Source: a virus (Duplodnaviria; Caudoviricetes). Taken from it: a DNA stretch of 60,375 nucleotides. How positions within the stretch are numbered: position 1 is the first letter of the stretch; each line of letters starts with the position of its first letter. This document shows positions 27,978 to 60,207 of this stretch, one piece after another. Below the pieces are notes generated by a model. The model was not told where the DNA came from, made no database searches, and worked only from the letters and a program-made list of their open reading frames with translations. The position numbers were made by a program, and so were the translations under genes. The DNA lies in the IMG/VR virus record IMGVR_UViG_3300018036_002016, positions 1 through 60,375 of that record; one strand, 5' to 3'.

Positions 27978-28676
27978 TTAGACATCAAATTTAAATATAG
28001 GGTGATGACATATAACATATCCGCCGACATGTCTTCTTTTTTCAGATGGTTTTATTTTGTACTTTTTATAAATCTCATTTGCAAATACATAATCTTCTCC
28101 TCTTCCTCCCTCGCTTTTCCAAGTAACTCCGATGTCTTTTTTATGAATAAGTTGGTATGTTCCTCCAGTCCAATTAACTCTAAGCTTAATGAATTCTATT
28201 TCAAATTGATTAAATTTAGACAACATTTCACCCTTTCCCTCTTTAACAACTCGTGCAACTGCTTGTTGAACATTTGGCATATTGTATATCTCATCAATTA
28301 TGATAATTTCTTTAGAATTAGCAATTGATGTGTATGCATCTTTTAATCTACTTGGCAAAATAAAATCATCACTATCTAGATATGTTATGTATTCATACTT
28401 TGAATTATCTATGCCTATTTGTCTATAGCCACCTGGATATTCTGAATTCTTTTCTTTAGGCATTTTTATAAGACTGATATTTGAAACCCTTTGATAGTGT
28501 TCTTCAAATAACCTATTTGTTATCTCACATCCATCACTAACTATCACTAGTTCGCAATTCTGTTGCCCAATTGTTTGATTAATAAATGAATTAACAGCCC
28601 TAATAAACTTTTGTTCTGGGTTTCTTCTAGCACCTGGATAATCTCCAAGATAGGATGTCATTATTACACTAATCAT
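27978..28676 (-). CDS. GT2-family glycosyltransferase
   Basis: ISVIM, RAVNSFINQ, ELVIVSDG, YLDSDD (DxD) and GED. Confidence 0.85.
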   Translation of the reverse strand: MISVIMTSYLGDYPGARRNPEQKFIRAVNSFINQTIGQQNCELVIVSDGCEITNRLFEEHYQRVSNISLIKMPKEKNSEYPGGYRQIGIDNSKYEYITYLDSDDFILPSRLKDAYTSIANSKEIIIIDEIYNMPNVQQAVARVVKEGKGEMLSKFNQFEIEFIKLRVNWTGGTYQLIHKKDIGVTWKSEGGRGEDYVFANEIYKKYKIKPSEKRRHVGGYVICHHPIFKFDV

Positions 28677-28749: not shown

Positions 28750-30231
28750 TTATAGAGCAAGGTTTAGTACGCTAAACTTCTGGTACTGAGTCTCTGGGTG
28801 GAAACCTGCTTTTACTAGAGCGAATCTAGATTTAACAGCAACCTTAGGAGCCATTGTACCTTCAGCGATAGTCTGTACGCTTTCTGCCATTAGGTAAGGC
28901 ATGAAAACAAGACCTGCACCATTACCATCACCTTTTCTACCAACTAGAATCTCGTGAGATTCTGCTCCAGAAGCATCAACAGCTCCTTCGAATGGAAGAC
29001 GTGGATCAGTGTAAACATTGATACCAGCAACCGAACCGATTGGGTAGATAGCGCCAGCAACTTGGCTAAATGTGTTAGCCATTGGGTTTGGAATGAATCC
29101 AGCAACACCTTGTAGTGCAGAAGCAACTTTTGCATCAACAACAGCAAAGTTACCAGCTCCTCTACGACCTCTGTTAGCGATTAAGTTCGCTGCAGCTAGG
29201 ATGTGAGTTAGGACTCTTCTGTTGATATCGCCGTAAGTATTACCGCTAACACCATTGTAGGTTAGAGATAGATCAGCAATTCCAGATTCAGCCATTTCTC
29301 TCATAGTTGAAAGAATGTAACCGTTGATAGACTGAGTTAGTTCGTTAGTTAGAACTGCCTCAACTTGAGCAACTGCGTCAACACCAAATTGCTTTAGATC
29401 TTGAACTTGCTCACGAGTTACTGCAGCTGCAACTTGGAAAGTTTCAGCCTCAACAGCTTTGCTGAATAGAGAAAGACCCATGATCTTGTCTGGAGTTCTT
29501 TCACCAACTGATCTTGAGAATGGTTTTGCGTCTAGTAAGTTACCATCAGCGTTCTCAACACCAGAGAATCCTGGGATGTGATCGTTTAGGGCAGCAACTA
29601 GATCAACAACTACAGAACCTTGAGATGCTGTAAATAGACCAGCAACAGTTCCTGGAGTTCCAGAAGATACTGCAGCTTCACCAGCTTCAGTGATTTTGTA
29701 GATACCGATTCCATCTAGACGTGAGGTACCTACTAATGTAGCAGCATCAGCAGCTGGTGAACCGTATTGGTTCACGCTGATTGTTCCTGCAGCATCATCA
29801 GAAGAAACTTTTACGTAAGTTGGAGTTACATCGTTATCAGTTCTACCACCTTCGTATACAAAGTCTAGGTAAGATAGAAGACCCATTGGACCTGCCATTG
29901 GGATTACCGGTACTAGATCTAGACCGATAGTTTGTGCAGCAACTTGCATTGCTAGTGGAAGTAGTGTTGGAGCTTTGTCACCAGAACCTCTTTGATTTGC
30001 AAATGATGCAGTGGTATCTGGTAGAGTTACAGCACCCATACCTCCGATGTTCATGCTATTGAAGCCAGCTTCAGAACCTAGGCTCATAAAGTTTGCGTCT
30101 TCGTATAGCTTGTGGTTGTGGCAGTAAGTTGACATCCATGCCAGCTTGCTTGATTCAGTAATACCAGTAGCTTCTTCAATGATTGGAGCCCAAGTACCTC
30201 TGATTTCTGCCTCGTTTAATAAATTAGCCAT
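28750..30231 (-). CDS. Major capsid protein (gp23-like)
   Basis: WAPIIE, LVPVIPMAGP, EQVQDLK, RRGAGNF, FMPY and PKVAVKSRFAL. Confidence 0.93.
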   Translation of the reverse strand: MANLLNEAEIRGTWAPIIEEATGITESSKLAWMSTYCHNHKLYEDANFMSLGSEAGFNSMNIGGMGAVTLPDTTASFANQRGSGDKAPTLLPLAMQVAAQTIGLDLVPVIPMAGPMGLLSYLDFVYEGGRTDNDVTPTYVKVSSDDAAGTISVNQYGSPAADAATLVGTSRLDGIGIYKITEAGEAAVSSGTPGTVAGLFTASQGSVVVDLVAALNDHIPGFSGVENADGNLLDAKPFSRSVGERTPDKIMGLSLFSKAVEAETFQVAAAVTREQVQDLKQFGVDAVAQVEAVLTNELTQSINGYILSTMREMAESGIADLSLTYNGVSGNTYGDINRRVLTHILAAANLIANRGRRGAGNFAVVDAKVASALQGVAGFIPNPMANTFSQVAGAIYPIGSVAGINVYTDPRLPFEGAVDASGAESHEILVGRKGDGNGAGLVFMPYLMAESVQTIAEGTMAPKVAVKSRFALVKAGFHPETQYQKFSVLNLAL

Positions 30232-30320: not shown

Positions 30321-32264
30321 TTATTTATTGAATCTCTTTTTGAATTGCTCAGCATATCCTGAAACATCATAACCAAGTCCTTTAGTTTCTTCTTTCTTAG
30401 ATTCATTAACCATTTCTATTTTTTCCATTACTGGAGCAGTTTCTCTAAGATCTCTAGTTTGCCAGAAGTTTTTAACTTGATATTCAGTTTCTAATTTGTG
30501 GTATTTAGCTTGAGCTGAAATTTGATTCTTTTTGCTTTCAGAAAGAGAAGACCATGTTTCAGCGTATTCTGCTGGCATTGCAGTAATAAAGAATGGTTCT
30601 GCGTTTCTGTTTTCAACGATTAACGTAGAGTTTTCAATAATTGCTTCAATTTGAGATTCTGTCATGAATCCTCTCTTAGAAACATTATATCTTACTTCTT
30701 TTTTAGCTTCTTCGTTTAGCGCGTTGTATTTTTCTTGTACTTTAGAAGAAACTACTTTGAAGAATGAAGGATTTTCATTTTCTTTTTTAGTTGCAGCTTC
30801 AACAAGAGTATTTAGCTTGCTTGCAATTTCTCTCTTATATGCTTCTGCAGCACTAACAACATCCTTTGTTCCTTCTTCACCACCGTCTTCTAGGTCGTCT
30901 TCAAGTTCATCAGAAGTATCTGTTGTTTTCTTATCATCTTCAGTATTTACTTTAGTATCTTCAGCTTCTGTTTCTTCAGCTGGAAGAGCCGCATCTTCTG
31001 CGTCGTCGCTAACATCACCTTCTTCAGAGTTATCTCCAACTTCAGTTTCTTTATCTTCGATTTCTTCCATATCTTTTGCAGCTCCTTCATCTTCTCCACC
31101 CTTGTCTAGATCTTCCTCTTCAACAACTAGGTTTTCATTAATTGATTCTGCAATATATTCTGCGTATTCAGTAACAGATTGTAGATTTTCTCTTAGGTAC
31201 TCGATGTATTCCATAAGCTTTTCAGAAGATTCAGTGTTTTCATTATGTGATTCTGCTAAGTAATTAGCGTAATCTTTTACTTTTGATAAACCTTCTGCAA
31301 GGTGTTCAGAATACTGAATACTATTATCTACCTTCTCAGCAACGTGTTCAGTGTATTGAATAGATTGATCTAGTTTTTCAGCAACATCTTCAGAGTATTG
31401 AATACCTTGGTCTGCTTTTTCAGCAACATGCTCAGAATATTGAATTGATTGATCTAATTTTTCAGCTAGGTACTCAACATAGCTTGATAGATTATTAACG
31501 CTCTCTACGATGTGGTCATTGTGAGCTTTAACTTCAGTTAGATCTTTTTCAGATACTTCACTAGTCGCTGGCACTTCTGTTTTTTCAATTGATTCTTTTA
31601 GCGACTTAATTTCATTAGCAAGATACTCAGTATACTTGTTAAAGTCGTCAGATTTTACAAATTCTGCCATGTCTTTGTTTTCTATAATTTGTGTTTGATT
31701 ATTATCTTGTTTTTTATTTATCTCATAAATATAAAGTCCGTTTTCTGCAGAATATCCATATGATTCGTTTACTCTTTTTAATTCTGCATTTTCAAATCCA
31801 GGATCAGCAACTAAATCATATGTAAAAAGCTGCTTAATTTTAACTTTTCCATTTGACTCAACCGCACCGGCTGCTCTAGATGAGATTTGTAGAGGTACTC
31901 CAGCATCAACTAATGCTTTTGCCTGTCTACCCGCATCAGTATCTAAAAGTCTAATGCGTCCTTTAACTTGTTTGTTGTCGCTGTCATAGTATAGGTCCTC
32001 TATGATATGAGACACATTCTTTAAAGATACGTCAAATTGTGAAGGATGATCTAGCTCACCTAATAATTTGCCCGATTTAATCTTTTGTTGAAGTGATTCA
32101 ATCTGTGGAACATACTCATCCTCGGTATAAATTCTTTGGTTTTTGTTTTTTACATCAATTTCACCAAAAATACCTTCTAGGACATACTCTTTAGAATCGC
32201 CTTCCGTCACCGAAAGAGTTTTCGACGACATTTCGACAATTAAAAGGTCTTTTATGTTTTCCAT
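30321..32264 (-). CDS. Prohead protease (gp21-like) fused to an acidic coiled-coil scaffold
   Basis: LEGIF, NKNQRIY, LGELDHP, ISSRAAG and YDLVADP, followed by 14-aa repeats and an acidic linker. Confidence 0.9.
   Translation of the reverse strand: MENIKDLLIVEMSSKTLSVTEGDSKEYVLEGIFGEIDVKNKNQRIYTEDEYVPQIESLQQKIKSGKLLGELDHPSQFDVSLKNVSHIIEDLYYDSDNKQVKGRIRLLDTDAGRQAKALVDAGVPLQISSRAAGAVESNGKVKIKQLFTYDLVADPGFENAELKRVNESYGYSAENGLYIYEINKKQDNNQTQIIENKDMAEFVKSDDFNKYTEYLANEIKSLKESIEKTEVPATSEVSEKDLTEVKAHNDHIVESVNNLSSYVEYLAEKLDQSIQYSEHVAEKADQGIQYSEDVAEKLDQSIQYTEHVAEKVDNSIQYSEHLAEGLSKVKDYANYLAESHNENTESSEKLMEYIEYLRENLQSVTEYAEYIAESINENLVVEEEDLDKGGEDEGAAKDMEEIEDKETEVGDNSEEGDVSDDAEDAALPAEETEAEDTKVNTEDDKKTTDTSDELEDDLEDGGEEGTKDVVSAAEAYKREIASKLNTLVEAATKKENENPSFFKVVSSKVQEKYNALNEEAKKEVRYNVSKRGFMTESQIEAIIENSTLIVENRNAEPFFITAMPAEYAETWSSLSESKKNQISAQAKYHKLETEYQVKNFWQTRDLRETAPVMEKIEMVNESKKEETKGLGYDVSGYAEQFKKRFNK
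31300..31480 (-). repeat. Imperfect 42-bp (14-aa) tandem repeat AEKLDQSIQYSEHV; limits approximate
   Basis: About four clear copies in the translation. Confidence 0.8.
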
Positions 32265-32314: not shown

Positions 32315-32671
32315 TTATACTTCAGCTTCTAAGTCTGCTAGTTCATCTCCGGTGTCTTCGCCACCTGATCCAGCATCTTCTTCTCCCTCTTCTTCAGCTT
32401 CCTTTTCCTTTTCTTCGGCGTAATACTCATTCCATAGCTGCTTTATCTGGGCAAGCTCTCCAGCTTTAAATGCATTTTGACCATATTTATCGTAAAAAAA
32501 GTCTTCGAGTTCTTTTTCTGTTTCAGAATTTACAATAGCTCCTACAATTTCAGCAGAAGAAATTACCCTTCCATCTTCTAAGGTAATATCATCAGCTGCA
32601 ACATCTGAATCAGGGTTCGGTTTTGCCGCATCCTCCTTAATAAATTCTTCAAATAGTTTAACTCGTTTCAT
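32315..32671 (-). CDS. Acidic prohead core-like protein carrying the shared N-terminal tag
   Basis: MKRVKLFEEFIKE start; lies between portal and protease, where T4 has gp67/gp68. Confidence 0.6.
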   Translation of the reverse strand: MKRVKLFEEFIKEDAAKPNPDSDVAADDITLEDGRVISSAEIVGAIVNSETEKELEDFFYDKYGQNAFKAGELAQIKQLWNEYYAEEKEKEAEEEGEEDAGSGGEDTGDELADLEAEV

Positions 32672-32691: not shown

Positions 32692-34284
32692 TTACATGCC
32701 CATCATATCATCTTCGGGCTCATCTCCGGCAGATTCTGCTTCTTTTTTAGCCTTGGCTGCCGCATTAGCTGCCAAATCATCATCTGAAATTTTAAGATAT
32801 TTTTTAACAAGGAAGTCCATGTCAAAGAAGTATTCTTGCTCCATTGTTTCTGGATTTTCTTCATATAGGCTTTCTCTCATTTGTCCAATAAAATCAAGCC
32901 TTCTTTCCATTATCTCGTAATTCTTTAGTTCAGCAAACACATTCTCTTCATTAAATCTAAGAGCAATCTGTGTTTTAAATTGTGGATCTCCTTCAAACTC
33001 AGGATATTTTAAACACATTTGAATATACAATGGTTTAACTAATACTTCCTGGAATACAGATCTCAATCTCTTTACAAATTTAGAGAATTTAATTTCATCT
33101 CTAATCATACCATCTGCTGCAAGGTTAAAATCTCCACCACCGTCTTCATACAGAAAACGTGAATATGGAATTTTAGAAACATGCTTTAATTTATCTGAGA
33201 AGTATTTAAGTGCTTCTGTATCTGATAAATCTGGGCCATCTCCTCCTAGTGTTTCAATTTCTGGAGATTCTCCTTCTTTAGAAGGCAACCAATATTCCTT
33301 ATTGAACTGAAGCATTGGCTTTCCATCAGTCTGTAGAGTAGCGCTATCCCAATCGAATTCTACACTTTCTTTATAAGAATGCATCAATTGCGCCAACGAC
33401 TGTTTTGCCCTGGTCTTAGATTTTCCACCAACTGGAATAATGAATTTCATTCTAAAGCTTGAGTTGGTAGTTGCCCAAATCACTCGAGTGTGTTCCATAA
33501 TTCGCAAGAGGTTGAATGCTCTTACTAATCTCTCAATATATGATACCCTAGATGCTGTGGTAATTGAAGAATAAGAAATATAGACAATTTGTGAGTCGTA
33601 TAATTTTCTTTGTTTATTTGGGTCATCTTTATATTGAACCCATACCTTTTTTCCATCTTCGTGATTATAACCTGGTATCAATGTTACTGGATCTAATTCT
33701 TTAAATCCAATAACTGTTTTCTGATCTGGAGAATAAATAATTTCAAAGGCAAGGTACCCATCTATTAGAAATTTTCTAAAATAGTACCACGCAGATTGAT
33801 CTTGTGTAAATCCAAAGTATTGATAAATCTGTTTAAAGTACTTATTAAGATCTTTTTCAACATCTTCAGAAACATCCATTCCTATTATTTCAGGCTGACA
33901 AAAGAAATTCTTTTCATCGTATACTACAGTCTCATCACATAGTATATCTAGAATATCTTCGATTTCATCATTTAATGAAAACTTTCTAAGCTCTTGTCTT
34001 TTACCCTCATAATCCTTATCAAAGAATGGAATATTCTTTTTGAGGTTAATGTCTGTCATTGATAGAGCAGCAAACGCTCCATAAATATCTTCATTGTCCC
34101 ATCCAAGAGGGTTCATTTGCCCGTAACCAATTTGGTCCTCCATTGGACCAATTGCTTGAGATTGTCTAAGCACAAGATCATCGTATCTCATACCAAACGA
34201 TGAAAGTGATTTTAGACTATCTGATAATCTAAAAGGTCTTTTACCTGTGCTTAACGGGCCATTTCTATCTTTAAATCCTGCCAT
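32692..34284 (-). CDS. Portal protein (gp20-like)
   Basis: FRKFLIDG, NLLRIMEH, EYWLPSKEG..EIETLGG, KIPYSR and RDEIKFSKFVKRLR. Confidence 0.93.
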   Translation of the reverse strand: MAGFKDRNGPLSTGKRPFRLSDSLKSLSSFGMRYDDLVLRQSQAIGPMEDQIGYGQMNPLGWDNEDIYGAFAALSMTDINLKKNIPFFDKDYEGKRQELRKFSLNDEIEDILDILCDETVVYDEKNFFCQPEIIGMDVSEDVEKDLNKYFKQIYQYFGFTQDQSAWYYFRKFLIDGYLAFEIIYSPDQKTVIGFKELDPVTLIPGYNHEDGKKVWVQYKDDPNKQRKLYDSQIVYISYSSITTASRVSYIERLVRAFNLLRIMEHTRVIWATTNSSFRMKFIIPVGGKSKTRAKQSLAQLMHSYKESVEFDWDSATLQTDGKPMLQFNKEYWLPSKEGESPEIETLGGDGPDLSDTEALKYFSDKLKHVSKIPYSRFLYEDGGGDFNLAADGMIRDEIKFSKFVKRLRSVFQEVLVKPLYIQMCLKYPEFEGDPQFKTQIALRFNEENVFAELKNYEIMERRLDFIGQMRESLYEENPETMEQEYFFDMDFLVKKYLKISDDDLAANAAAKAKKEAESAGDEPEDDMMGM

Positions 34285-34322: not shown

Positions 34323-34922
34323 TTATCTAGCGTGTTTTCTGAAAGCAAATCTAATTTTTGCCGGAGTGCTTCCATTCAAATCTATGAAATCACAAAGTGC
34401 TATTTTTGACCAACTTTCATATGCAACTACTGCTTGGTTTCTTTTTAAATTTGGGATATATTGTCTAATTGCAAAATCATATCCGTATCTCTCTAAGAAT
34501 GATTTTGCACCTTGGTATGAAAATCCTATTTGACCCTGTGCTATTGCATTCTCACTCTTGACTCCAATTGTTTGTGACTTTATCTGACCTGACATTCTAT
34601 CATATACAAAATCAAGAAGCTCTTCTTTTACTTTTATTGGTAGTAAATTTAAATTTATACCTACATCATTTTTTTCATATGGGTCTAATGCAAGAACTAC
34701 TGGATTTTCATCCCACCATTCTAATCTTTCTTGTGTTTTTGGGGTTTTATACTCAAATACATAAATTTTTCCAGGTCTAAATCTTTGGCCAGTTGATGTT
34801 ACTGTTTTATCCATTCTCTTAGATTTACCGAGAGTGTACCAAGCCTCTGCTTTAGCCCTCGCTAAGCGCTTTCCACCAGCATCTTTAGTTAGTTTTTTAA
34901 TTTGTTTTTTTATTTCTCCCAT
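34323..34922 (-). CDS. DNA end protector (gp2-like)
   Basis: PGKIYVFEY, WWDENP, GINLNLLP and AIRQY. Confidence 0.75.
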   Translation of the reverse strand: MGEIKKQIKKLTKDAGGKRLARAKAEAWYTLGKSKRMDKTVTSTGQRFRPGKIYVFEYKTPKTQERLEWWDENPVVLALDPYEKNDVGINLNLLPIKVKEELLDFVYDRMSGQIKSQTIGVKSENAIAQGQIGFSYQGAKSFLERYGYDFAIRQYIPNLKRNQAVVAYESWSKIALCDFIDLNGSTPAKIRFAFRKHAR

Positions 34923-35395
34923 TATTTAAGTGACTTTTCTGTCAGGATAATAAATCTCCAACCTCGATCTTCTGCCCATTTTTTAGCATATTTATATTTA
35001 TCGCGATTTATAACATACTGTTCAGCTAAAAATTTATAAGATTTTAGAGCTTTTTTAGAGTTTTTTGTGGGCTGTTTTGGCTTTTTAATTTGATCTGATG
35101 GTTTAATTTCAATTAAAAACTCTTCATATGTTTCTCCTTTTTGAACTTTCATATAAAAGTCAGGATAATATTTTCTTTCTTTAGAATCTAACGTAGACCA
35201 ATATTTTATTTCAACAGGTTCTGAAGACCATGCGATTACATCATCTCTATTATCGCATAAAATCATAAACTTTCTCTCCCATGAAGATCTGTAAATTATA
35301 GGAGATTTGCCTAAATACTTTTTAGGATATTTTGGATTATAGTATCCTTGTATGAACCCTGAATTATTTGTAGGTCTTACGTTTTTTATTGACAT
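34922..35395 (-). CDS. Head completion nuclease (gp4-like, TnsA-type)
   Basis: PKKYLG..IIYRSSWE, WSSE, YYPDF, IEIKP and FIILTE. Confidence 0.9.
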   Translation of the reverse strand: MSIKNVRPTNNSGFIQGYYNPKYPKKYLGKSPIIYRSSWERKFMILCDNRDDVIAWSSEPVEIKYWSTLDSKERKYYPDFYMKVQKGETYEEFLIEIKPSDQIKKPKQPTKNSKKALKSYKFLAEQYVINRDKYKYAKKWAEDRGWRFIILTEKSLK

Positions 35396-51899: not shown

Positions 51900-52475
51900 T
51901 TATCCCCATCTTCCTAATTCATTAAATACTCTAAATTTAGAAACATATCTTCCCTGTTTTGTTCCTAACATTAAGTTGACCCATCTTCCAGCGATTTTTT
52001 TAGTCCAACTGTATCTAAAGTGCTTGTGTCCTCTGATATAAAATGTTGCAAATTGCAGACCTGTAACTGTTTTATCTCTCCATATCATGCCACCTTCTTC
52101 ACCTATGACATTATGTACTCTAATCTCAATAATGTCTCCATTTGTTTTTTTTGCCAAAGCTAACTTTAGCTGCCATGCTGGATTTCGCATAGCTACCCAT
52201 TCAAATGACTGGGAAAAACGCTCCCACTTCGTCATTCTATTGTATTCATATAGAATGTCTGCAACTTCAGGTCTTAATTCATAAAAACCATACCAGTTTT
52301 CAAGGTGGCTTGGCTCATCTTGATTTGTTAAATACCAGAGACCTAACACCTTAAATAGCCTTGGATTATTATCAATTTGGCGTCTTAATAAGTATACCAA
52401 AGGAAAGAGAAGAATACCTAAAAGTGCTCCAATTGCTTCTAAAAACTTTACAATAAAAAATCTAAGATACATCAT
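51900..52475 (-). CDS. Hypothetical protein with an N-terminal TM segment
   Basis: Hydrophobic N-terminus; W..MRNPA motif. Confidence 0.6.
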   Translation of the reverse strand: MMYLRFFIVKFLEAIGALLGILLFPLVYLLRRQIDNNPRLFKVLGLWYLTNQDEPSHLENWYGFYELRPEVADILYEYNRMTKWERFSQSFEWVAMRNPAWQLKLALAKKTNGDIIEIRVHNVIGEEGGMIWRDKTVTGLQFATFYIRGHKHFRYSWTKKIAGRWVNLMLGTKQGRYVSKFRVFNELGRWG

Positions 52476-52845
52476 TTTTACTAAGATATAAAATTATTAT
52501 ATGTGCTGCTTTATAATTAGTTGCTAATGGGACATTATGTACGTCACAAAGTCTCATCAACATTGAAATGTCAACATCATGCGGGTGTTTGTCGAGAGGA
52601 TCTCTAAAAAACACAACTGCATCCATTTCACCACGAGCAACCATTGCTCCTATTTCTGCATCACCACCAAGAGGACCACTATTTACCCGCTCTACTTTTT
52701 CCACGCCAGCATGCAAGATGCTTGCTCCCGTAGTTCCAGTTGCTACAAGTTTTACGTCTTCCCGGTTGAAGAAGTCTAGTCTCTTCATTACAAAAGCAAC
52801 CATATCTGCCTTTTTTCCATCATGGGCTACTAGTGCTATTTTCAT
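52462..52845 (-). CDS. mgsA: Methylglyoxal synthase
   Basis: IALVAHDGKK, ATGTTG, SGPLGGD, FFRDP..HPHDVD and PLATN. Confidence 0.93.
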   Translation of the reverse strand: MKIALVAHDGKKADMVAFVMKRLDFFNREDVKLVATGTTGASILHAGVEKVERVNSGPLGGDAEIGAMVARGEMDAVVFFRDPLDKHPHDVDISMLMRLCDVHNVPLATNYKAAHIIILYLSKNDVS

Positions 52846-53208: not shown

Positions 53209-53230
53209 CTAAGCTAATATAAACAAAAAA

Positions 53231-53252
53231 GCCGAGACTAAAAAATCTCGGC
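53231..53252 (-). terminator. Intrinsic terminator ending the tagged-gene cluster
   Basis: GCCGAGA...TCTCGGC followed by TTTTTT. Confidence 0.75.
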
Positions 53253-53277
53253 TTAAATATTTTAAAACTATTTTAAA

Positions 53278-53595
53278 TTAGTACTCAAATGGAGGAGTGC
53301 TATAATCAGATTGTTCTATTCCATACCACGTGTTTCCAATTTGAAAATACCACCATCCATATTCAGAATCATCTACTACTTTAAACTTTTTCGGTAATTT
53401 TACAGACTTTTTAGATGCTCTAGCAATATATTTTAGAACTGGAACTCCATCGTCCCATGTTTTAGTAGTCGACCTTGCATTTACTGTACTTTCATCAGAA
53501 AGTGCGTCATATACTTCAGCGTTTTTAATCTCGCTAGCAAGTGCATCAATTGCTGATTCATTTACAAATGCTTCAAATAGTTTTATATGTTTCAT
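53278..53595 (-). CDS. Putative internal head protein (tagged)
   Basis: Starts MKHIKLFEAFVNE. Confidence 0.7.
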   Translation of the reverse strand: MKHIKLFEAFVNESAIDALASEIKNAEVYDALSDESTVNARSTTKTWDDGVPVLKYIARASKKSVKLPKKFKVVDDSEYGWWYFQIGNTWYGIEQSDYSTPPFEY

Positions 53596-53849
53596 GATTA
53601 TTTAGGGGCCTTAACGGACTTTAATTTAACAACTCTATCTCCTGATTTATTATAATGAGATGATACTTCATACCATTTTCCATTGTCAGCTTGTGCAACT
53701 TCTGGTTGAGTATCTCTATCATATTGACGCTTTAGAGTGTCATAGTTTATATCTGAGAAATATTGTCTAAACTCAGAAGGATAAAGAGTAGTTGGTATTC
53801 TACCACTAGACTCATTTACAAATGCTTCAAATAGTTTTATATGTTTCAT
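53558..53849. repeat. 38-bp exact direct repeat at 53558-53595 and 53812-53849, encoding the tag
   Basis: tcatttacaaatgcttcaaatagttttatatgtttcat occurs twice. Confidence 0.95.
53598..53849 (-). CDS. Putative internal head protein (tagged)
   Basis: Starts MKHIKLFEAFVNE. Confidence 0.7.
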   Translation of the reverse strand: MKHIKLFEAFVNESSGRIPTTLYPSEFRQYFSDINYDTLKRQYDRDTQPEVAQADNGKWYEVSSHYNKSGDRVVKLKSVKAPK

Positions 53850-53860
53850 TTATATAGTTT

Positions 53861-54295
53861 TTATTTAAAGTCTGCCTTTACTCGATACTTTCTATCGGTA
53901 ATCACCTTATTCATTTCATTTGAAAGATATGCTAAGATTTCCATCTGTGCATTTTTTGCAGCTTCATCAACCGAATCTTCGGCCATATTTTTTGAAAAAT
54001 CTTCCCAATTATTTGCAGTTTCTTTATACCAATCTTTAAACTCTTCAATTAGCCTTTCTGTAAATGTATCAAATCCAGCAAGCTCTACATACTCTTCTGA
54101 AATAAATGATTCAAAAGTCTGAATATTTTTCATTTTTTTCTTTTTTCTTTTTTTCTTAAATTCTTCTTTAGCATCTCCTTGACCTGCTGGAACATCTCCG
54201 GTACCTGTGTACTCAGTAGAAGTTGGAAGTTTTACAGCTCCCATACCACCAACACTTGCTAGTGTTATGTTCATTTCTTCTACATTATCTTCCAT
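53861..54295 (-). CDS. Putative head protein: capsid N-arm-like segment, poly-Lys tract and internal tag
   Basis: GGMGAVKLP..GTGD, KKKRKKKK and MKNIQTFESFISEE. Confidence 0.65.
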   Translation of the reverse strand: MEDNVEEMNITLASVGGMGAVKLPTSTEYTGTGDVPAGQGDAKEEFKKKRKKKKMKNIQTFESFISEEYVELAGFDTFTERLIEEFKDWYKETANNWEDFSKNMAEDSVDEAAKNAQMEILAYLSNEMNKVITDRKYRVKADFK

Positions 54296-54334: not shown

Positions 54335-54625
54335 TTATTCCCACTCGTCTTTAGTGTCCTCTGGATACTCGATTATATCTAGGAATTTATCATAACTATG
54401 ATCGTTTCCAGTATATCTTTCATCATCGCTGTAAATACCTTCTTCGTCCCAAACCATTGTTACCTTTCCATCCCAATCCGGATTTGGTGCATCTACACCG
54501 TCAACCATAATACCATCACCCCATTCTGAAGCATCGTATCCCATTTTTTTAAGTCTCTTAACTTCTTTCTTAACGTTGATTTTTTCTTCGTTAATGAATT
54601 GTTCAAATAATTTTACGTGTTTCAT
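54335..54625 (-). CDS. Putative internal head protein (tagged)
   Basis: Starts MKHVKLFEQFINE. Confidence 0.7.
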   Translation of the reverse strand: MKHVKLFEQFINEEKINVKKEVKRLKKMGYDASEWGDGIMVDGVDAPNPDWDGKVTMVWDEEGIYSDDERYTGNDHSYDKFLDIIEYPEDTKDEWE

Positions 54626-55278
54626 ATTTCAAAATTTTCTATTTCAGGAATTATTGTTTTACCCAATTCAATAAACACAGGAGCTACGGCTTTTGTAATA
54701 TAACCATATACCCATGCAAAGTCTTCTTCGCTCATAACTACCATTGGATCCTTATGATCACCTTCTGAAGGCCACGTGTATTCTCCTTGACCATAGTCAT
54801 GTTTAATCCACTCATCACCTTTAAGAGAAACTCCTAATTTTTTAGCTTGATGACGAGCTAATACTTTTTTAGCTAGGTGAAAACACTCATGCGGTAAAAC
54901 ATCCATCATTGCAGCGAATAAGCTACCGCTTGCTTCAGCCTCGCCTTTTAAACGATCCATAGTTATCCACAAAAACATATCAGCGCCGCCGTTCATTACG
55001 TTAGACATACCATAAAGAAATGCATCAGTAGGTTTAGTATCATATGCCTCAGCCTCGGCCTTTTTTAAGCCTGTCCACTTTTCAATATCTTCCGCGATTG
55101 AGAACATACCGACTGCATCTGGGCCCAAGGCTAATAGAACCTCATCGTCTATTTTAATCTCATCGCTAATATCAAATTGCAACTTAACTACTTTAGTAAC
55201 TACACCTGCATCAAGTGCTTCTGTTAGTTTAGTGGTATTCTCACTAATAAATTGTTCGAATAATTCTACGTGTTTCAT
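54622..55278 (-). CDS. Tagged protein with an HExxH motif (putative zinc peptidase)
   Basis: Starts MKHVELFEQFISE; contains HECFH and a downstream EEDFA. Confidence 0.65.
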   Translation of the reverse strand: MKHVELFEQFISENTTKLTEALDAGVVTKVVKLQFDISDEIKIDDEVLLALGPDAVGMFSIAEDIEKWTGLKKAEAEAYDTKPTDAFLYGMSNVMNGGADMFLWITMDRLKGEAEASGSLFAAMMDVLPHECFHLAKKVLARHQAKKLGVSLKGDEWIKHDYGQGEYTWPSEGDHKDPMVVMSEEDFAWVYGYITKAVAPVFIELGKTIIPEIENFEI

Positions 55279-55345: not shown

Positions 55346-58021
55346 TTACCAGACATAGTCCATATTTTGAATCTTTTTAATTCTATCTTTAATAGACTTT
55401 GCATAGTTCTTAACTTCTCTTTCGTAATAACTACCTTCATATCCAGCATTCTTTTCTTGTTCTGCGTTATTTGTATAGTCTACGTATCTTCTAAAGTCAT
55501 CTAATAGATTTGACATTGCGTTCGAAGCATCTCTTAAAGAAACACTTCTTCCTTTAGGATCTGTTCCAATAATCGGTTCACCGTATTTAGATGTTTCTTT
55601 ATTAGCAATTCCATTTTTAATTTGCTCAGCAACAACATCAATGGCCTTTAAAACTTCAGCGTCTATTGGCATTTGTGCTGCTCGATTTGCAAGAATTGTG
55701 TGGTATCTGTCCTTATTTTCTTTTCTAAAATCTTTATCAGACTTGAAGGCAATTGCTCCTTTTTTAGATTGCTCTCTTTCAGTTCTTTTTGCAGATGATG
55801 AGTATCTTGCATCTAGTACGTCAAGATCTAATACATACGCTCTGTCGGCTAATTCTGCAACTTTTGTTAGACTTGATATTCCTGAACCCCATTCATCCTG
55901 TGTACTTGATTTTGAGAATCCTATACTATCATCTCTTTTTGAAGTTGTTACTGTTGATTCACCTCGCATCCATCCCGTAGATAACCATTGATTCTTGCCA
56001 TCTGTCATTGCAAGTAGTGTGTTTCCAGGAATACTTTTTACACCATATGAATATGACTTTGCATATGGGTTTTCTTTTTCGTTTGTTGTAAAGTAAAAAT
56101 ATACAGCTCTATTTCTTTTTTCTTTTTTAGCAGAAATTGGATCCATTTCAATAATATCAATATCTTCAATTTTATCTAGTTGAAGTTTTGACATTGAATA
56201 AAATGACTTTGCTAGATTCTTTGGCATTGATTTTGCACCTGCTAGAATAGACTGTAGCTTTGAAGACTTAAATGCTTCATTAACTGTGTTATTACTTAAA
56301 GATTGTACATATGATTTAAAAGACTCATATATGAATTTGTCCTCTTTTTTGTTTCTCTTTGATTCAAATTCTCCATTTTGAGCCATTGATAATAATGCAG
56401 TTGCTATTTTTTCAGCCTTAGCACCCTTATGTCCATAAGTTGCAACTGTTTCTCTAGCATCATCAGGTAACATGTCAGCTAATTCCCATGGATCATATTC
56501 TCCTAAAAGATCTAGTAAAATATTTTTAGCTTCTTTTTCTTCTTTACCTTCACTTACTGCTCTATCCTCTTTAATTGTTACTGGATATTTTTTACCGTCA
56601 AATTCAAATTCTTTATCTCCAGCATCTTTTGCTTTTTTAGCAGCCGCAACAAATGCTCTACCTTCTTTAATTGTTACTGGATATTTTTTACCATCAAATT
56701 CAAATTCTTTGTCTCCATCGTCTTTTGCTTTTTTAGCAGCCGCAACAAATGCTCTACCCTCTGTAGTTACTGATTCAAACTGTAAAGAATCAAGCTTAAT
56801 ATTCATTGAAACCATGTCCATTGGTCCTTTACCATCTTCATAGTCTACTGTAGCCATTGATCCAGTCGGTGAAAATTCTATAATCTTAAATCTACCAGGG
56901 AATCTGATATTCTCACCATAAACGGTTTCACCTTTCTCAACAGCCTTGATAGCTTTCTTAATTTTAGGATGAATACCTTCGTTAATTGCTGATTCTTCAA
57001 TATACTCAGCTAATCCATCATCACACCATCCATAGTCACAATCACTTAGTACCTTTTCAAGGTCTTTTCTTTTACCTTGCATTGTAATTACCGGGTGACC
57101 TCCACCTGGACCATCCATCATTTTATCAGTGATCTTAACTCTATTTTTCTTTAAGAATTTTAAGAAGTCTTTATCATCTGGATCTACTGCATCCATTTCT
57201 ACACGAGCCTCACAAATCTTAGATTCGTCATAACCATCATAGTCATCATAATAGTCTTCATCACCTCCAGTATACCATGACTGGTTTGGATCCGATGCTG
57301 CTTCTTTGGTAAAATCATGTCTTTTCCAGTTATATTTAGCAGTTGTTACGAGCGCTGGAAAAAGAGGTTTTTTACCTTTATCTCTTGTTTCTAGACTTCC
57401 AAATGCAATAGCAATACCGAAATCTCTTAAAGATTTAGAAACCATTTTGATTTTTTTCGTAAGACTTTTATCTTCTAAGTCTTCTTCAGAATATCCATTC
57501 ATTCTAGCAAGCAATTCATAATAGTCCATTCCTCCGAATTCTCCATAGCCTTCGTATTTACCTTCAAACCAAGAATTTCCTCTATTATCATACATCCAAA
57601 CGTCAATTGTATTCTCTTTGTCAGAACCGATTTGCTCTTCAGTATCTTGTGTCATCCATGAGAATTGACCCTCTGCGATCATAAAAGATTCAGTAATTTC
57701 TTCTTCAGATTCTTCTTCATTAATATTTAATACCGACAGCGCTCTAGACCCTATTTTTGATAGTGATACTCCATCTTCAGAAACATTAAAATATCTAGAA
57801 TTCCTAGAGATCCATTTTGGGGCACTTTTTGAAAATTCAGAAACTAATTTTTCAAAATCTTCGCTTGTAATTGTTGTTGTTCCAACAGTTGACAATATTT
57901 TATTTCTTACCTTTGCTGCAAATCCAATTGTAATTGCTGGGTGATTTTCAGTATATTGTCTTTTTACAACGATTTTCTTTGACTCGCTTAGATTGCGAGA
58001 AAATTCATTAAAATCAATCAT
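55346..58021 (-). CDS. 891-aa modular protein; putative internal polyprotein
   Basis: Segments separated by (I/V/L)xE sites; tag-like start; class 3 promoter at 58044. Confidence 0.65.
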   Translation of the reverse strand: MIDFNEFSRNLSESKKIVVKRQYTENHPAITIGFAAKVRNKILSTVGTTTITSEDFEKLVSEFSKSAPKWISRNSRYFNVSEDGVSLSKIGSRALSVLNINEEESEEEITESFMIAEGQFSWMTQDTEEQIGSDKENTIDVWMYDNRGNSWFEGKYEGYGEFGGMDYYELLARMNGYSEEDLEDKSLTKKIKMVSKSLRDFGIAIAFGSLETRDKGKKPLFPALVTTAKYNWKRHDFTKEAASDPNQSWYTGGDEDYYDDYDGYDESKICEARVEMDAVDPDDKDFLKFLKKNRVKITDKMMDGPGGGHPVITMQGKRKDLEKVLSDCDYGWCDDGLAEYIEESAINEGIHPKIKKAIKAVEKGETVYGENIRFPGRFKIIEFSPTGSMATVDYEDGKGPMDMVSMNIKLDSLQFESVTTEGRAFVAAAKKAKDDGDKEFEFDGKKYPVTIKEGRAFVAAAKKAKDAGDKEFEFDGKKYPVTIKEDRAVSEGKEEKEAKNILLDLLGEYDPWELADMLPDDARETVATYGHKGAKAEKIATALLSMAQNGEFESKRNKKEDKFIYESFKSYVQSLSNNTVNEAFKSSKLQSILAGAKSMPKNLAKSFYSMSKLQLDKIEDIDIIEMDPISAKKEKRNRAVYFYFTTNEKENPYAKSYSYGVKSIPGNTLLAMTDGKNQWLSTGWMRGESTVTTSKRDDSIGFSKSSTQDEWGSGISSLTKVAELADRAYVLDLDVLDARYSSSAKRTEREQSKKGAIAFKSDKDFRKENKDRYHTILANRAAQMPIDAEVLKAIDVVAEQIKNGIANKETSKYGEPIIGTDPKGRSVSLRDASNAMSNLLDDFRRYVDYTNNAEQEKNAGYEGSYYEREVKNYAKSIKDRIKKIQNMDYVW
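56568..56759. repeat. 96-bp tandem duplication (EGRAFVAAAKKAKDxGDKEFEFDGKKYPVTIK twice)
   Basis: Near-identical copies at 56568-56663 and 56664-56759. Confidence 0.95.
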
Positions 58022-58042
58022 TTTATTGCTTGTTTTATTTTT

Positions 58043-59884
58043 TTATATATTCTTTATAAATTTTTCAAATGTTAAAAACTCCGATTCATTAGTAGACACG
58101 CTGTCTTCTAATTTTGTTTTTAGCTCATTGTACATTCCATGAATTTGCTTAGGAGTTAATTTTTTAAATAGCTTTTCATCGTTGTCAAGCATTGCATTTC
58201 TTACTTGAGTTGCTGAAATATTTTTACCAGTTCTTGGAATCTCGAATAGACCAAAATCATCTCTGACTCCGAGATCTTCTCTATATTCTGGTTTATCTAC
58301 TTGGTATGAATAAGTTTTAAGCCTATCAGTTCCAGTACCCCAAAGTACAGGTTCATAGCCGTCTGCCCTCATTGCATTAAACATGTGGTCTATGCCAGCA
58401 GTTGGAAGAACATAAACTTTTTCAATAGGATACTTTGACTTTAATTGATTAAGCATTGCAATTTGAGTTTCCTCGTCATAAGGTCTCTTAAATGCATCCT
58501 CTGGTTTTTTAGTCTTTGATTTAATTAAAAATATAACTACTGGATAACCATTTTGTTTGTTAATAGTTTCTATTACCTTAGCATGTCCCAATGTAAATGG
58601 CTGAAAGCGACCAACAAACATATTTACTGGCTTTTTACCTTGTTTAGGGTAACTAACAGTCAGTGCTTCAGTAATAGGACTTACTTGATGTTTTAGGTTT
58701 TCGTGATTTAAAAATGTTTTAAAGCTCATGAGATTTGATTCATTGTTTTGAAGCATTACAACTGACTCTATTTTATCAACGATCTCGTTAATTTGAGACA
58801 TTAAGTCATTGTTAATAATTTCAGTTTCTTTAAGTCTTCTTTTTCTAAAAGAACCTAGCGCAATTTTATATAATTCTTCTAGCACCTGGTTAGCTACTAA
58901 CTCTATTGTTTTTTCATTAGTGATAAACTTAGTGTTTAGTGAAAAACTTGGTGAGTCAGAAAATTCAGCAGACTCAAATTTAACTCCAATATATTTGGTT
59001 GCGTTTTTATCAACATATGCATTAAATAATTGAGAGATTAGTTCAATATATCTTTTGTCAGAATCATTTTCGTTTAATTCTAGGTTTTCAATATCATATG
59101 TTGTAAAATATTCAACTAAATCTAGTAGTGCTATCTGGTATATGTCAGATGGTTTTCTGTTTTCTTTTATAAGATCTTCTCCTTGACATATCTTAAAACT
59201 CTTTACACTTTTACCTTCGAAAAAATTAATAATAATTGAATCAATCTCACCATCTAAATCTTCATTAAGAGCAGTTGAATTTAATCCTCTATTAAATATA
59301 GAATACATTTTTCTAGAAAAGCTTAGAGACTCAAACTGTGCATCGAAATCAGTATCGCTTAAATTTAGTAATTTTGTAATCTCATCCTTTTGATAATCAG
59401 AAAGTTTTCCTTGGTGTAAAATTTGAGGTCTTTGTACTTCTAGGATGTCAGCCCACTTTTCTAAGATTTTAGGATCTCTGATTACTTTCTTTATTAAAGT
59501 AGGGTCATTAGGACTCATTACTTGTATATGTGAAAGCATCAAATTATTTTTAGGTATTCTGTCGTACTTTATATTGACTGTTTTTGAATCGGTCATATAA
59601 TCAAATCCAAATCTCCAGTCTAAAGGCATTTGCTCTTTAATATGATCGGGCTGTGATTCAAAATAGGTCACTGCATTTTCATAGTACTTTACAATTGTTC
59701 TATCAACCTTATCCATTGGTGATTTATTTCCACTCTTATGATAATTATATCCTTTATCAGTTTTTTGAACATGGAAAGAAGACGCTTGTATCTTTTCTGC
59801 AACAACGCAGGTTAGATTTAGCATTTTTTGAAAATCATTAATATTGCTTTCGCTATAATATGTTCTTAAATTTTGTAGTGCCAT
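58043..59884 (-). CDS. Fusion of a degenerate ligase-like N-terminal domain and a HIGH-family nucleotidyltransferase
   Basis: VAEKIQAS resembles ligase motif I; GRFQPFTLGH and ISATQVR in the C-terminal third. Confidence 0.65.
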   Translation of the reverse strand: MALQNLRTYYSESNINDFQKMLNLTCVVAEKIQASSFHVQKTDKGYNYHKSGNKSPMDKVDRTIVKYYENAVTYFESQPDHIKEQMPLDWRFGFDYMTDSKTVNIKYDRIPKNNLMLSHIQVMSPNDPTLIKKVIRDPKILEKWADILEVQRPQILHQGKLSDYQKDEITKLLNLSDTDFDAQFESLSFSRKMYSIFNRGLNSTALNEDLDGEIDSIIINFFEGKSVKSFKICQGEDLIKENRKPSDIYQIALLDLVEYFTTYDIENLELNENDSDKRYIELISQLFNAYVDKNATKYIGVKFESAEFSDSPSFSLNTKFITNEKTIELVANQVLEELYKIALGSFRKRRLKETEIINNDLMSQINEIVDKIESVVMLQNNESNLMSFKTFLNHENLKHQVSPITEALTVSYPKQGKKPVNMFVGRFQPFTLGHAKVIETINKQNGYPVVIFLIKSKTKKPEDAFKRPYDEETQIAMLNQLKSKYPIEKVYVLPTAGIDHMFNAMRADGYEPVLWGTGTDRLKTYSYQVDKPEYREDLGVRDDFGLFEIPRTGKNISATQVRNAMLDNDEKLFKKLTPKQIHGMYNELKTKLEDSVSTNESEFLTFEKFIKNI

Positions 59885-59892
59885 AGTTTCTT

Positions 59893-60207
59893 TTAATTAG
59901 GCCAAATCATTACAGTTCCTGCATCATGCCATTCACTATACCAACCTCTTTTATTAAGTTCTTTTTCCCACCTTTTGTCTACCCCAAATATTCTATTTTT
60001 GTGGTCCATTGAATAGTAGTCATAAATTCTTTTACCTTTGTACTCGTCTCCATTTTCTCCAGAAATCCATATTCCACCAGGAGAGCCATTGAATTCTTCA
60101 GATTGACTTACAAAATCAAGATATTGTTCTAACCATACCATCATTTCATCCCTATCTATAGATTTAGCTTCATTTACAAATTGTTCGAATATCATTATGT
60201 GTTTCAT
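59893..60207 (-). CDS. Putative internal head protein (tagged); start likely 60207
   Basis: Starts MKHIMIFEQFVNE right after the upstream stop. Confidence 0.7.
   Translation of the reverse strand: MKHIMIFEQFVNEAKSIDRDEMMVWLEQYLDFVSQSEEFNGSPGGIWISGENGDEYKGKRIYDYYSMDHKNRIFGVDKRWEKELNKRGWYSEWHDAGTVMIWPN

Follow-up and report, generated by a model that had tools for sequence, protein, structure and literature searches.

In phage T4, the internal proteins open with a capsid-targeting sequence of 10 residues, in which residues 4 and 7 serve targeting and residues 8 and 10 processing, and the prohead protease cuts after L/I-X-E (PMC9026906). The first ~25 residues of the mature major capsid protein of T4 (gp23 residues 66–91) form the N-fist, and the N-arm comes after it (PMC7136217, PMC9958956). 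Inside the head before expansion, gp23's N-terminal region is disordered and probably lies on the scaffold core; upon expansion, it becomes an external arm and the N-fist on the outer surface (PMC9546572, PMC9958956). The N-fist touches four subunits (PMC9958956) and is disordered where it faces not a capsomer but the portal (PMC7136217), and the N-terminal region has been linked to head-length control and expansion (PMC9546572). In phiKZ and SPN3US, propeptides of head paralogs are removed by a T4-related protease at short x-x-E motifs and are thought to act like capsid-targeting sequences (PMC5694885). Here we describe an open reading frame (ORF) at positions 53861–54295 on the minus strand of a virus sequence of 60,375 nucleotides (IMG/VR record IMGVR_UViG_3300018036_002016; Duplodnaviria, Caudoviricetes), the whole of which we refer to as the window. 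The ORF encodes a 144-residue protein, the N-terminal part of which copies a segment close to the N-terminus of the major capsid protein (MCP) encoded in the same window. Our sequence analyses point, with a probability that we place near one half, to a head-loaded and protease-processed modular protein with a core peptide that would imitate the N-terminus of the MCP and so share its partner.

The window covers 60 kb of the genome of a T4-like jumbo phage and has genes for an MCP, a protease–scaffold fusion, a portal, a T4-type terminase, and a tail sheath; given that related IMG/VR records of 119–176 kb are rated 44–59% complete, the genome is probably near 290 kb. The MCP gene (28750–30231, minus strand) encodes a 493-residue protein of the gp23 family (Pfam PF07068, E = 1.8e-42) that, in tblastn searches against phages, is 49% identical to that of LR756500.1, the closest public phage genome, and 34–36% identical to those of the Lak phages. 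The segment copied by the small protein is M60–D85, MNIGGMGAVTLPDTTASFANQRGSGD (29977–30054, minus strand), and the copy occupies residues 9–36 of the small protein, NITLASVGGMGAVKLPTSTEYTGTGDVP (54188–54271, minus strand), the two having in common the motif GGMGAV.LP ... G[ST]GD. Among the stop-to-stop frames of the window of at least 60 residues, the patterns GGMG and [GSNH]G[MI]G..[LF]P occur in the ORF and MCP frames only. A pairwise BLASTP comparison of the two proteins gives 12 identities in 25 positions with E = 9e-4, which is marginal alone, coming from a single comparison. A hidden Markov model built from 21 distinct homologous segments (the window's own excluded) and searched against the 784 six-frame frames of the window (53,906 residues) retrieves the ORF with E = 1e-24 and the MCP with E = 9.6e-5, and the next frame has an E-value of 2. 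We refer to the module composed of the MCP-like segment, a lysine run, and an F..F helix, which is associated with DUF3008 in relatives, as the tail; the label is coined here and does not denote a curated family. Profile–profile comparison of eight tail segments with six MCP segments yields a probability of 96.2% and an E-value of 2.5e-9 over 23 columns, and searches with the tail profile in 10 related phage records from two clades each match two genes and no more, the MCP and one that is small or modular. An earlier note on this DNA had claimed from the letters alone that the ORF copies a capsid segment, and these comparisons bear it out.

The likeness is conserved well beyond the window. All of the 120 closest MCPs have the motif, 116 of them fitting the strict pattern and the other four being off by one residue or offset, and the spacer between the two motif anchors of MCPs is 8–17 residues long. 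The same Gly and Pro positions are invariant in the tail and MCP families. LR756500.1 keeps the motif with the same pairing of MCP and small protein, and the Lak-A2 MCP retains the second anchor only. In a second jumbo-phage clade (MCPs 56–57% identical), 17–21 of 32 positions are common to the tail and MCP segments, and exactly nine residues stand between the E of [LIV]-x-E and VNGMG in five of five MCPs as well as in five of five tails. In 12 of 12 jumbo-phage records, the MCP and a small protein both have the motif, and in four of four cyanophage records neither has it, a set that amounts to about four lineages and not to 16 independent cases. Within the MCP, MNIGGMGAVTLPDTTASFANQRGSGD starts 16 residues after L42-Y43-E44 (30100–30108, minus strand), the predicted maturation cleavage site; L-Y-E-D-A is invariant at this position in 46 MCPs (alignment A6), and the L-x-E is also retained in LR756500.1 and Lak-A2. 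We infer that the MCP is cleaved at this site. The earlier note was right to place the copied segment after a candidate LYE site but took the segment to be the N-arm; its position corresponds to that of the T4 N-fist (gp23 66–91), and the arm follows it (PMC7136217, PMC9958956).

The ORF runs from an ATG start to a TAA stop and encodes, in order, MEDNVEE, MNITLASVGGMGAVKLPTSTEYTGTGD, a stretch ending in KKKRKKKK, and MKNIQTFESFISEE; an identical protein is present on 14 contigs of the protein collection. All of its parts lie on the minus strand. The last three residues of the seven-residue leader MEDNVEE (54275–54295), V-E-E, are a candidate protease site of the [LIV]-x-E type, and relatives have comparable short leaders with an L/V/I-x-E end and the motif immediately after. 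The MCP-like, or N-fist-like, segment at residues 9–36 is recovered by BLASTP, pattern, and profile matches and is under purifying selection; residues 1–40 of the protein are probably disordered when alone, as judged from an AlphaFold2 model (predicted local distance difference test score, pLDDT, below 50). Residues 37–54 (..GDAKEEF KKKRKKKK; 54134–54187) form an acidic stretch followed by a run of lysine and arginine residues, which 22 of 22 distinct segments retain, none of them interrupted by a stop or frameshift. Residues 55–67 (54095–54133) are a tag, MKNIQTFESFISE, which has an I-S-E end, is common to six other genes of the window, and begins with Met55 at position 54133, a possible internal start. 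Residues 68–144 (53861–54094) constitute a conserved C-terminal domain with 33 invariant positions across 24 homologs; two long helices, at residues 76–104 and 109–141, are predicted in the AlphaFold2 model, which is of low confidence (mean pLDDT of 53 for the whole ORF). This domain has no Pfam or PHROG family above threshold, and an Atlas look-up (best score 0.81) returned no named family or cluster and no structural match. A tblastn search of the ORF against 50,697 phage records gave no match at E-values up to 1. The ORF protein has no match to the Pfam Gp23 model (PF07068), its likeness to the MCP is a local match of 25 residues, and its model is helical, so it is not itself a gp23-family MCP or a gp24-type paralog.

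The pattern of nucleotide substitution indicates that the part of the ORF upstream of Met55 is coding. In two relatives, L001 and L002, this 54-codon region differs at 13 sites, all of which are third positions; between the window and L001, differences at codon positions 1/2/3 number 7/6/28, and across the comparisons of the window with its relatives they number 5–11, 4–9, and 16–28. The ratio of nonsynonymous to synonymous substitution rates (dN/dS) of the upstream segment is 0.07–0.31 where it is computable, that is, where synonymous sites are not saturated, and the proportion of synonymous differences (0.5–0.88, near saturation) exceeds that of nonsynonymous differences (0.11–0.22). In the 22 distinct segments, the reading frame continues into the downstream part without any stop or frameshift, and at least 13 of the best 149 cluster representatives open, as the ORF does, with a short leader from a Met, which the motif follows immediately. 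The purifying selection and the same architecture in other proteins argue that the N-terminal extension is coding and not a mere leader for the ATG at 54133. Initiation at 54133 only, named in the earlier note as a result that would refute its claim, is unlikely, and a short product may be made in addition.

The domain architecture of relatives places the MCP-like segment in a large family. Most full-length homologs consist of DUF3008 (PF11450), an [LIV]-x-E site, the MCP-like segment, the acidic stretch, the lysine/arginine run, the tag, and variable cargo. In the window copy, MEDNVEE stands in place of DUF3008: the ORF protein (P0001) has no PF11450 match, with homologs P0002 and P0010 scoring 38.9 and 39 bits (cut-off 24), and the DUF3008 profile detects nothing anywhere in the window (best E = 0.49). 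With E <= 0.001 as the limit, a profile of DUF3008 plus tail retrieves 3,185 cluster representatives. Of the best 149 of these, 101 have the motif (G[MI]G..[LF]P ... G[ST]GD), and 60 of the 101 also have, by a simple pattern, the lysine run and helix within 70 residues. Together with the 21 distinct segments and the 120 MCPs, this answers to the conservation in homologs the lack of which the earlier note had set as a refutation. Small stand-alone proteins of the second clade are made up of DUF3008, the motif, the lysine run, and the F..F helix, and depending on the relative, the core peptide is encoded alone, behind DUF3008, or ahead of varied cargo. A 78-residue gene of a related jumbo phage (L035, 3510–3746, plus strand) contains a six-residue leader with an I-K-E end, the MCP-like segment, the lysine run, and the F..F helix and is a minimal form of the module. 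The common core of all versions is the MCP-like segment, lysine run, and helix, DUF3008 in front and cargo behind being optional. We also considered an alignment of DUF3008 with the MCP propeptide (..H..L.E in register), which we rejected as unproven because its confidence is near zero outside the motif and its global probability is 7%. A literature search found no paper with the term DUF3008.

The tag of the ORF protein links it to a set of neighboring genes. The 13-residue pattern MK[HRN][IV]..FE.F..E has seven copies in the window, six of them N-terminal and one at Met55 of the ORF. The run KKKRKKKK and the internal tag of the earlier note are present as it stated, but the tag proved to be one with which six other genes of the window begin. 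Two of these lie downstream of the ORF (105 and 83 residues; 53278–53849, minus strand), two upstream (96 and 218 residues; 54335–55278, minus strand), one at 59893–60207, and one (118 residues; 32315–32671, minus strand) between the portal gene (32692–34284) and the protease gene. The tag DNA is identical at 23–38 of 39 bases between copies, tag residues 4 and 7 are I/V and F, and residues 11–13 are [VI]-x-E in seven of seven copies. The junction-type tag motif occurs 10 times in the window compared with 0.7 occurrences expected from shuffles. In polyprotein relatives, the second half of the tag (..FESV[VI][NT]E) is found at every module junction, and relatives have between 2 and 12 tagged genes per 20-kb locus (this search used the narrower alignment A2, A1 being too diverse). 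No Pfam or PHROG family was found for the tagged neighbors.

A protease that could act on such sites is encoded in the window. The gene at 30321–32264 (minus strand) encodes an S77 prohead protease (Pfam PF03420, E = 6.9e-14; PHROG 207) fused to a scaffold-like region. The fusion protein has 34 [LIV]-x-E sites, or 5.26 per 100 residues compared with 1.94 overall, and in residues 252–364 of the scaffold-like region such a site recurs every 14 residues (252, 266, ... 364) inside 14-residue sequence repeats; this spacing fits a scaffold core that is cut into small peptides. Among the 101 motif-bearing representatives, 82 have an [LIVM]-x-E site no more than 16 residues upstream of the motif, 60 of them at one fixed spacing.

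The locus resembles the T4 internal proteins IPI–III and Alt in that a short N-terminal tag is common to otherwise unrelated small proteins of a variable locus, the tag ends in a prohead-protease motif, and a gp21-family (S77) protease is encoded; the hydrophobic or aromatic tag residues 4 and 7 are the T4 targeting positions (PMC9026906). It differs in that the tag is 13 residues long rather than 10, V at P3 extends the T4 L/I-X-E rule, the tag is internal in the ORF protein and its DUF3008 relatives, after the MCP-like segment and lysine run, and relatives of the ORF are multi-module polyproteins with a half-tag at each junction. Since Pfam, PHROG, and tblastn detect no homology, we suggest that the ORF protein works like the T4 internal proteins and not that it is a member of them. 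The copied MCP segment, in turn, is like the T4 N-fist in standing directly after a predicted maturation cut and before a conserved arm and in being Gly rich with invariant Gly and Pro positions; it differs in that the segment also occurs detached from the capsid body, on a small protein. We found no description of a detached N-fist copy in the available text of the literature, including the N-fist papers, and the motif strings were unmatched there. The propeptides of phiKZ and SPN3US, although removed by a related protease, are longer than 100 residues and have no sequence relationship to the segment, and the excerpts of PMC5694885 do not report a resemblance to the MCP. The closest full-length homologs of the ORF protein place DUF3008 directly before the MCP-like segment, and the lysine run and F..F helix are common even to the 69-residue DUF3008 protein ORF93 of the Synechococcus cyanophage S-SCSM1; the window protein, however, lacks DUF3008, and the cyanophage protein lacks the MCP-like segment. 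The annotated virion proteins of S-SCSM1 include ORF93, the large protein encoded before it, and an NMNAT-like protein, and 45 virion proteins of this phage were identified by mass spectrometry (PMC9602691).

Based on these results, we hypothesize that the modular ORF protein is loaded into the prohead, where the T4-type prohead protease cuts it. The 13-residue amphipathic tag (MK.I..FE.F..E) resembles the T4 capsid-targeting sequence and may serve in loading. Cuts after E7 and E67 would release a basic peptide of ~60 residues, with the MCP-like segment, the lysine run, and a helix, from the 77-residue C-terminal domain. The copied segment may then engage the partner of the MCP's own N-terminal segment, which would be either the prohead scaffold core or, after expansion, an inter-capsomer socket; given that the T4 region is disordered inside the prohead and external after expansion, a detached copy could act at either stage. 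A basic peptide with a putative DNA-binding lysine run would in this way be placed at the shell. Packaging, cleavage, and any binding of the ORF protein are what we infer from these features, and the genomic context is that of the head, with one tagged gene placed between those for the portal and the protease and the same promoter-like word before the array and before the MCP and protease genes. The idea has a parallel in the encapsulins, in which a short Gly-rich linear cargo peptide docks on an HK97-fold shell protein, although the cargo peptide of encapsulins usually stands at the C-terminus and their shells form compartments of bacteria. Cofolding of two MCP bodies (residues 88–493) with ORF residues 8–67 gave a score of 0.02 (mark 0.32), which speaks neither for nor against binding; the T4 socket needs four subunits.

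Several observations weigh against a head-loaded, MCP-imitating protein or leave room for other explanations. The predicted pattern of cuts is uncertain because the C-terminal domain contains further [LIV]-x-E sites; 19 of the 101 motif-bearing representatives lack an upstream [LIVM]-x-E site, and in 3 of 22 distinct segments V-D-D replaces V-x-E before the motif. S-SCSM1 ORF93 has the lysine run and F..F helix without the MCP-like segment and is annotated as a virion protein, so the segment is unneeded for virion association there, and the text of PMC9602691 does not name this ORF. The covariation of tail and MCP within a genome is weak and is not counted as support: in 3 of 11 genomes, the best-ranked MCP for a tail is that of its own genome (permutation p = 0.006, the genomes being non-independent), and in the second clade the tail has no preference for the MCP of its own genome. 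We also considered and rejected a vertex (gp24-type) paralog, as a single Gp23-family gene was found in each of five records, one of them 91% complete. Finally, the 20 bases before the ATG at 54133 have an A-fraction of 0.90, the highest of 54 listed starts in a phage that shows no Shine–Dalgarno sites, and homologs of 90–95 residues start at the equivalent Met; an A-rich run being an ideal start region, the short product may be the main one. It is conceivable on these grounds that only a 90-residue protein is made and that the 54 codons upstream serve as a leader for translation or are left over from a lost DUF3008 module. The N-terminal position of the tag in the six other window genes and the loss of DUF3008 from the window copy would agree with this, but the upstream protein sequence is kept despite near-saturated synonymous sites, an open frame runs from an ATG seven codons ahead of the motif, the leader-first layout recurs in cluster representatives and in the stand-alone gene of L035, and the identical protein is found on many contigs. 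We consider a short product alone improbable.

A different role for the same peptide deserves more weight, although we still regard it as unlikely. The earlier note suggested that the protein may occupy a site on the shell and tether DNA or cargo, or modulate head assembly; in a specific form of this idea, the protease-released peptide could act as an N-fist in trans, filling inter-capsomer sockets that the MCP leaves empty, for example at the portal or vertices, with the lysine run tying DNA or cargo to the shell. The four-subunit contacts of the T4 N-fist (PMC9958956) are in line with this, as is its disorder at the portal, from which it follows that special sites exist (PMC7136217). Further points in its favor are the equal spacing from predicted cut to motif in MCP and tail of the second clade, the existence of the core peptide as its own 78-residue gene, the identical invariant Gly and Pro positions of the two families, and the dispensability of the segment for virion association in the cyanophage relative, which hints at a role beyond loading. 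Because the outer surface is where the T4 N-fist finally lies, however, an internal peptide would need to pass through the shell with its lysine run left behind in the interior; the five records yielded no vertex paralog without the segment, so that no class of empty sockets is identified, and the covariation with the MCP of the same genome is weak. We are more doubtful that the tagged genes encode host-takeover or accessory proteins, that the tag stems from recombination cassettes, and that the MCP likeness is a functionless passenger of an old partial duplication. The hyperplastic array with modules shuffled at the tag, the DNA identity among tag copies, and the lack of any family that assigns a function to the cargo would be expected under this explanation. 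Against it stand the Gly and Pro positions, invariant in two families down to 49–57% MCP identity, which is unexpected for a passenger, the protease motif that ends every tag of the window and recurs at polyprotein module junctions, and the annotation of relatives of the neighboring genes as virion proteins in S-SCSM1. Chance similarity of two Gly-rich, low-complexity stretches might be suspected from the short BLASTP match, with its 12 of 25 identities in a single comparison; it is already refuted by the window-wide profile search, in which the MCP was followed by nothing below E = 2, by the profile–profile comparison, by the MCP being the sole second match in each of the 10 other records, and by the identities in the second clade, and we consider it very improbable.

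The head of the tagged array is an 891-residue protein (55346–58021, minus strand) with a tag-like N-terminus and, at residues 56 and 415, motifs like those of the junctions. In relative P0113, the module of DUF3008 plus tail is inserted in a homolog of this protein, which in the window also has two tandem repeats of ~33 residues, EGRAFVAAAKKAKD.GDKEFEFDGKKYPVTIKE; no relationship to the large S-SCSM1 protein was detectable. The word ATATATAAAA precedes the 891-residue gene at 58041–58050 (minus strand). It has six matches in the window (14671, 30309, 32284, 39295, 50385, and 58041), all on the minus strand, which is the gene strand, and stands before the MCP and protease genes as well; 1.26 copies are expected, and six were reached in 1 of 100 shuffles. 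This promoter-like word is a candidate late-promoter element. A terminator-like hairpin (11-pair stem plus T run; 53229–53254, minus strand), which is a consensus match only, follows the last gene of the array. The 218-residue tagged protein (54622–55278, minus strand) contains an HExxH motif (HECFH) typical of zinc metalloproteases, with no Pfam or PHROG family found, and a gene for an MGS-domain (methylglyoxal-synthase-like) protein (52462–52845, minus strand) adjoins the array and has the same place in relatives. Upstream of the 891-residue gene, a 613-residue protein (58043–59884, minus strand) has a C-terminal nucleotidyltransferase domain that is 26% identical over 167 residues (E = 2e-9) to the NMNAT-like protein of S-SCSM1. 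Among the head genes, a glycosyltransferase-like gene (27978–28676, minus strand; PHROG GtrB-like, E = 5.6e-8) is located directly downstream of the MCP gene, and a variable spacer rich in Ser, Thr, and Asn is present both in the MCP segment (residues 72–81) and in the small protein's copy; from these sequences, glycosylation of the capsid is conceivable. A protein with a TnsA-like endonuclease domain (34922–35395, minus strand; Pfam E = 1.1e-19), which may be a homing-type endonuclease, is encoded a short way upstream of the portal, with head and tail genes around it.

The selection and placement of proteins in the head interior are known in detail for few model phages only, and the family of 3,185 representatives to which the ORF belongs is a large undescribed module in which a targeting-like tag is paired with a copy of the N-terminal segment of a shell protein. 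If the tail filled empty sockets in trans, it would be a new class of capsid "rivet" that many uncultured jumbo phages have, frequently in fusion with DUF3008 or variable cargo. If, as our preferred explanation has it, the copy binds the partner of the MCP N-terminus, imitation of the shell protein would be a simple route by which proteins are loaded into or anchored in the head, and the copy would mark the site of that partner. DUF3008 proteins would thereby gain a testable role, and the core peptide would be a candidate for loading foreign proteins into the heads of jumbo phages.

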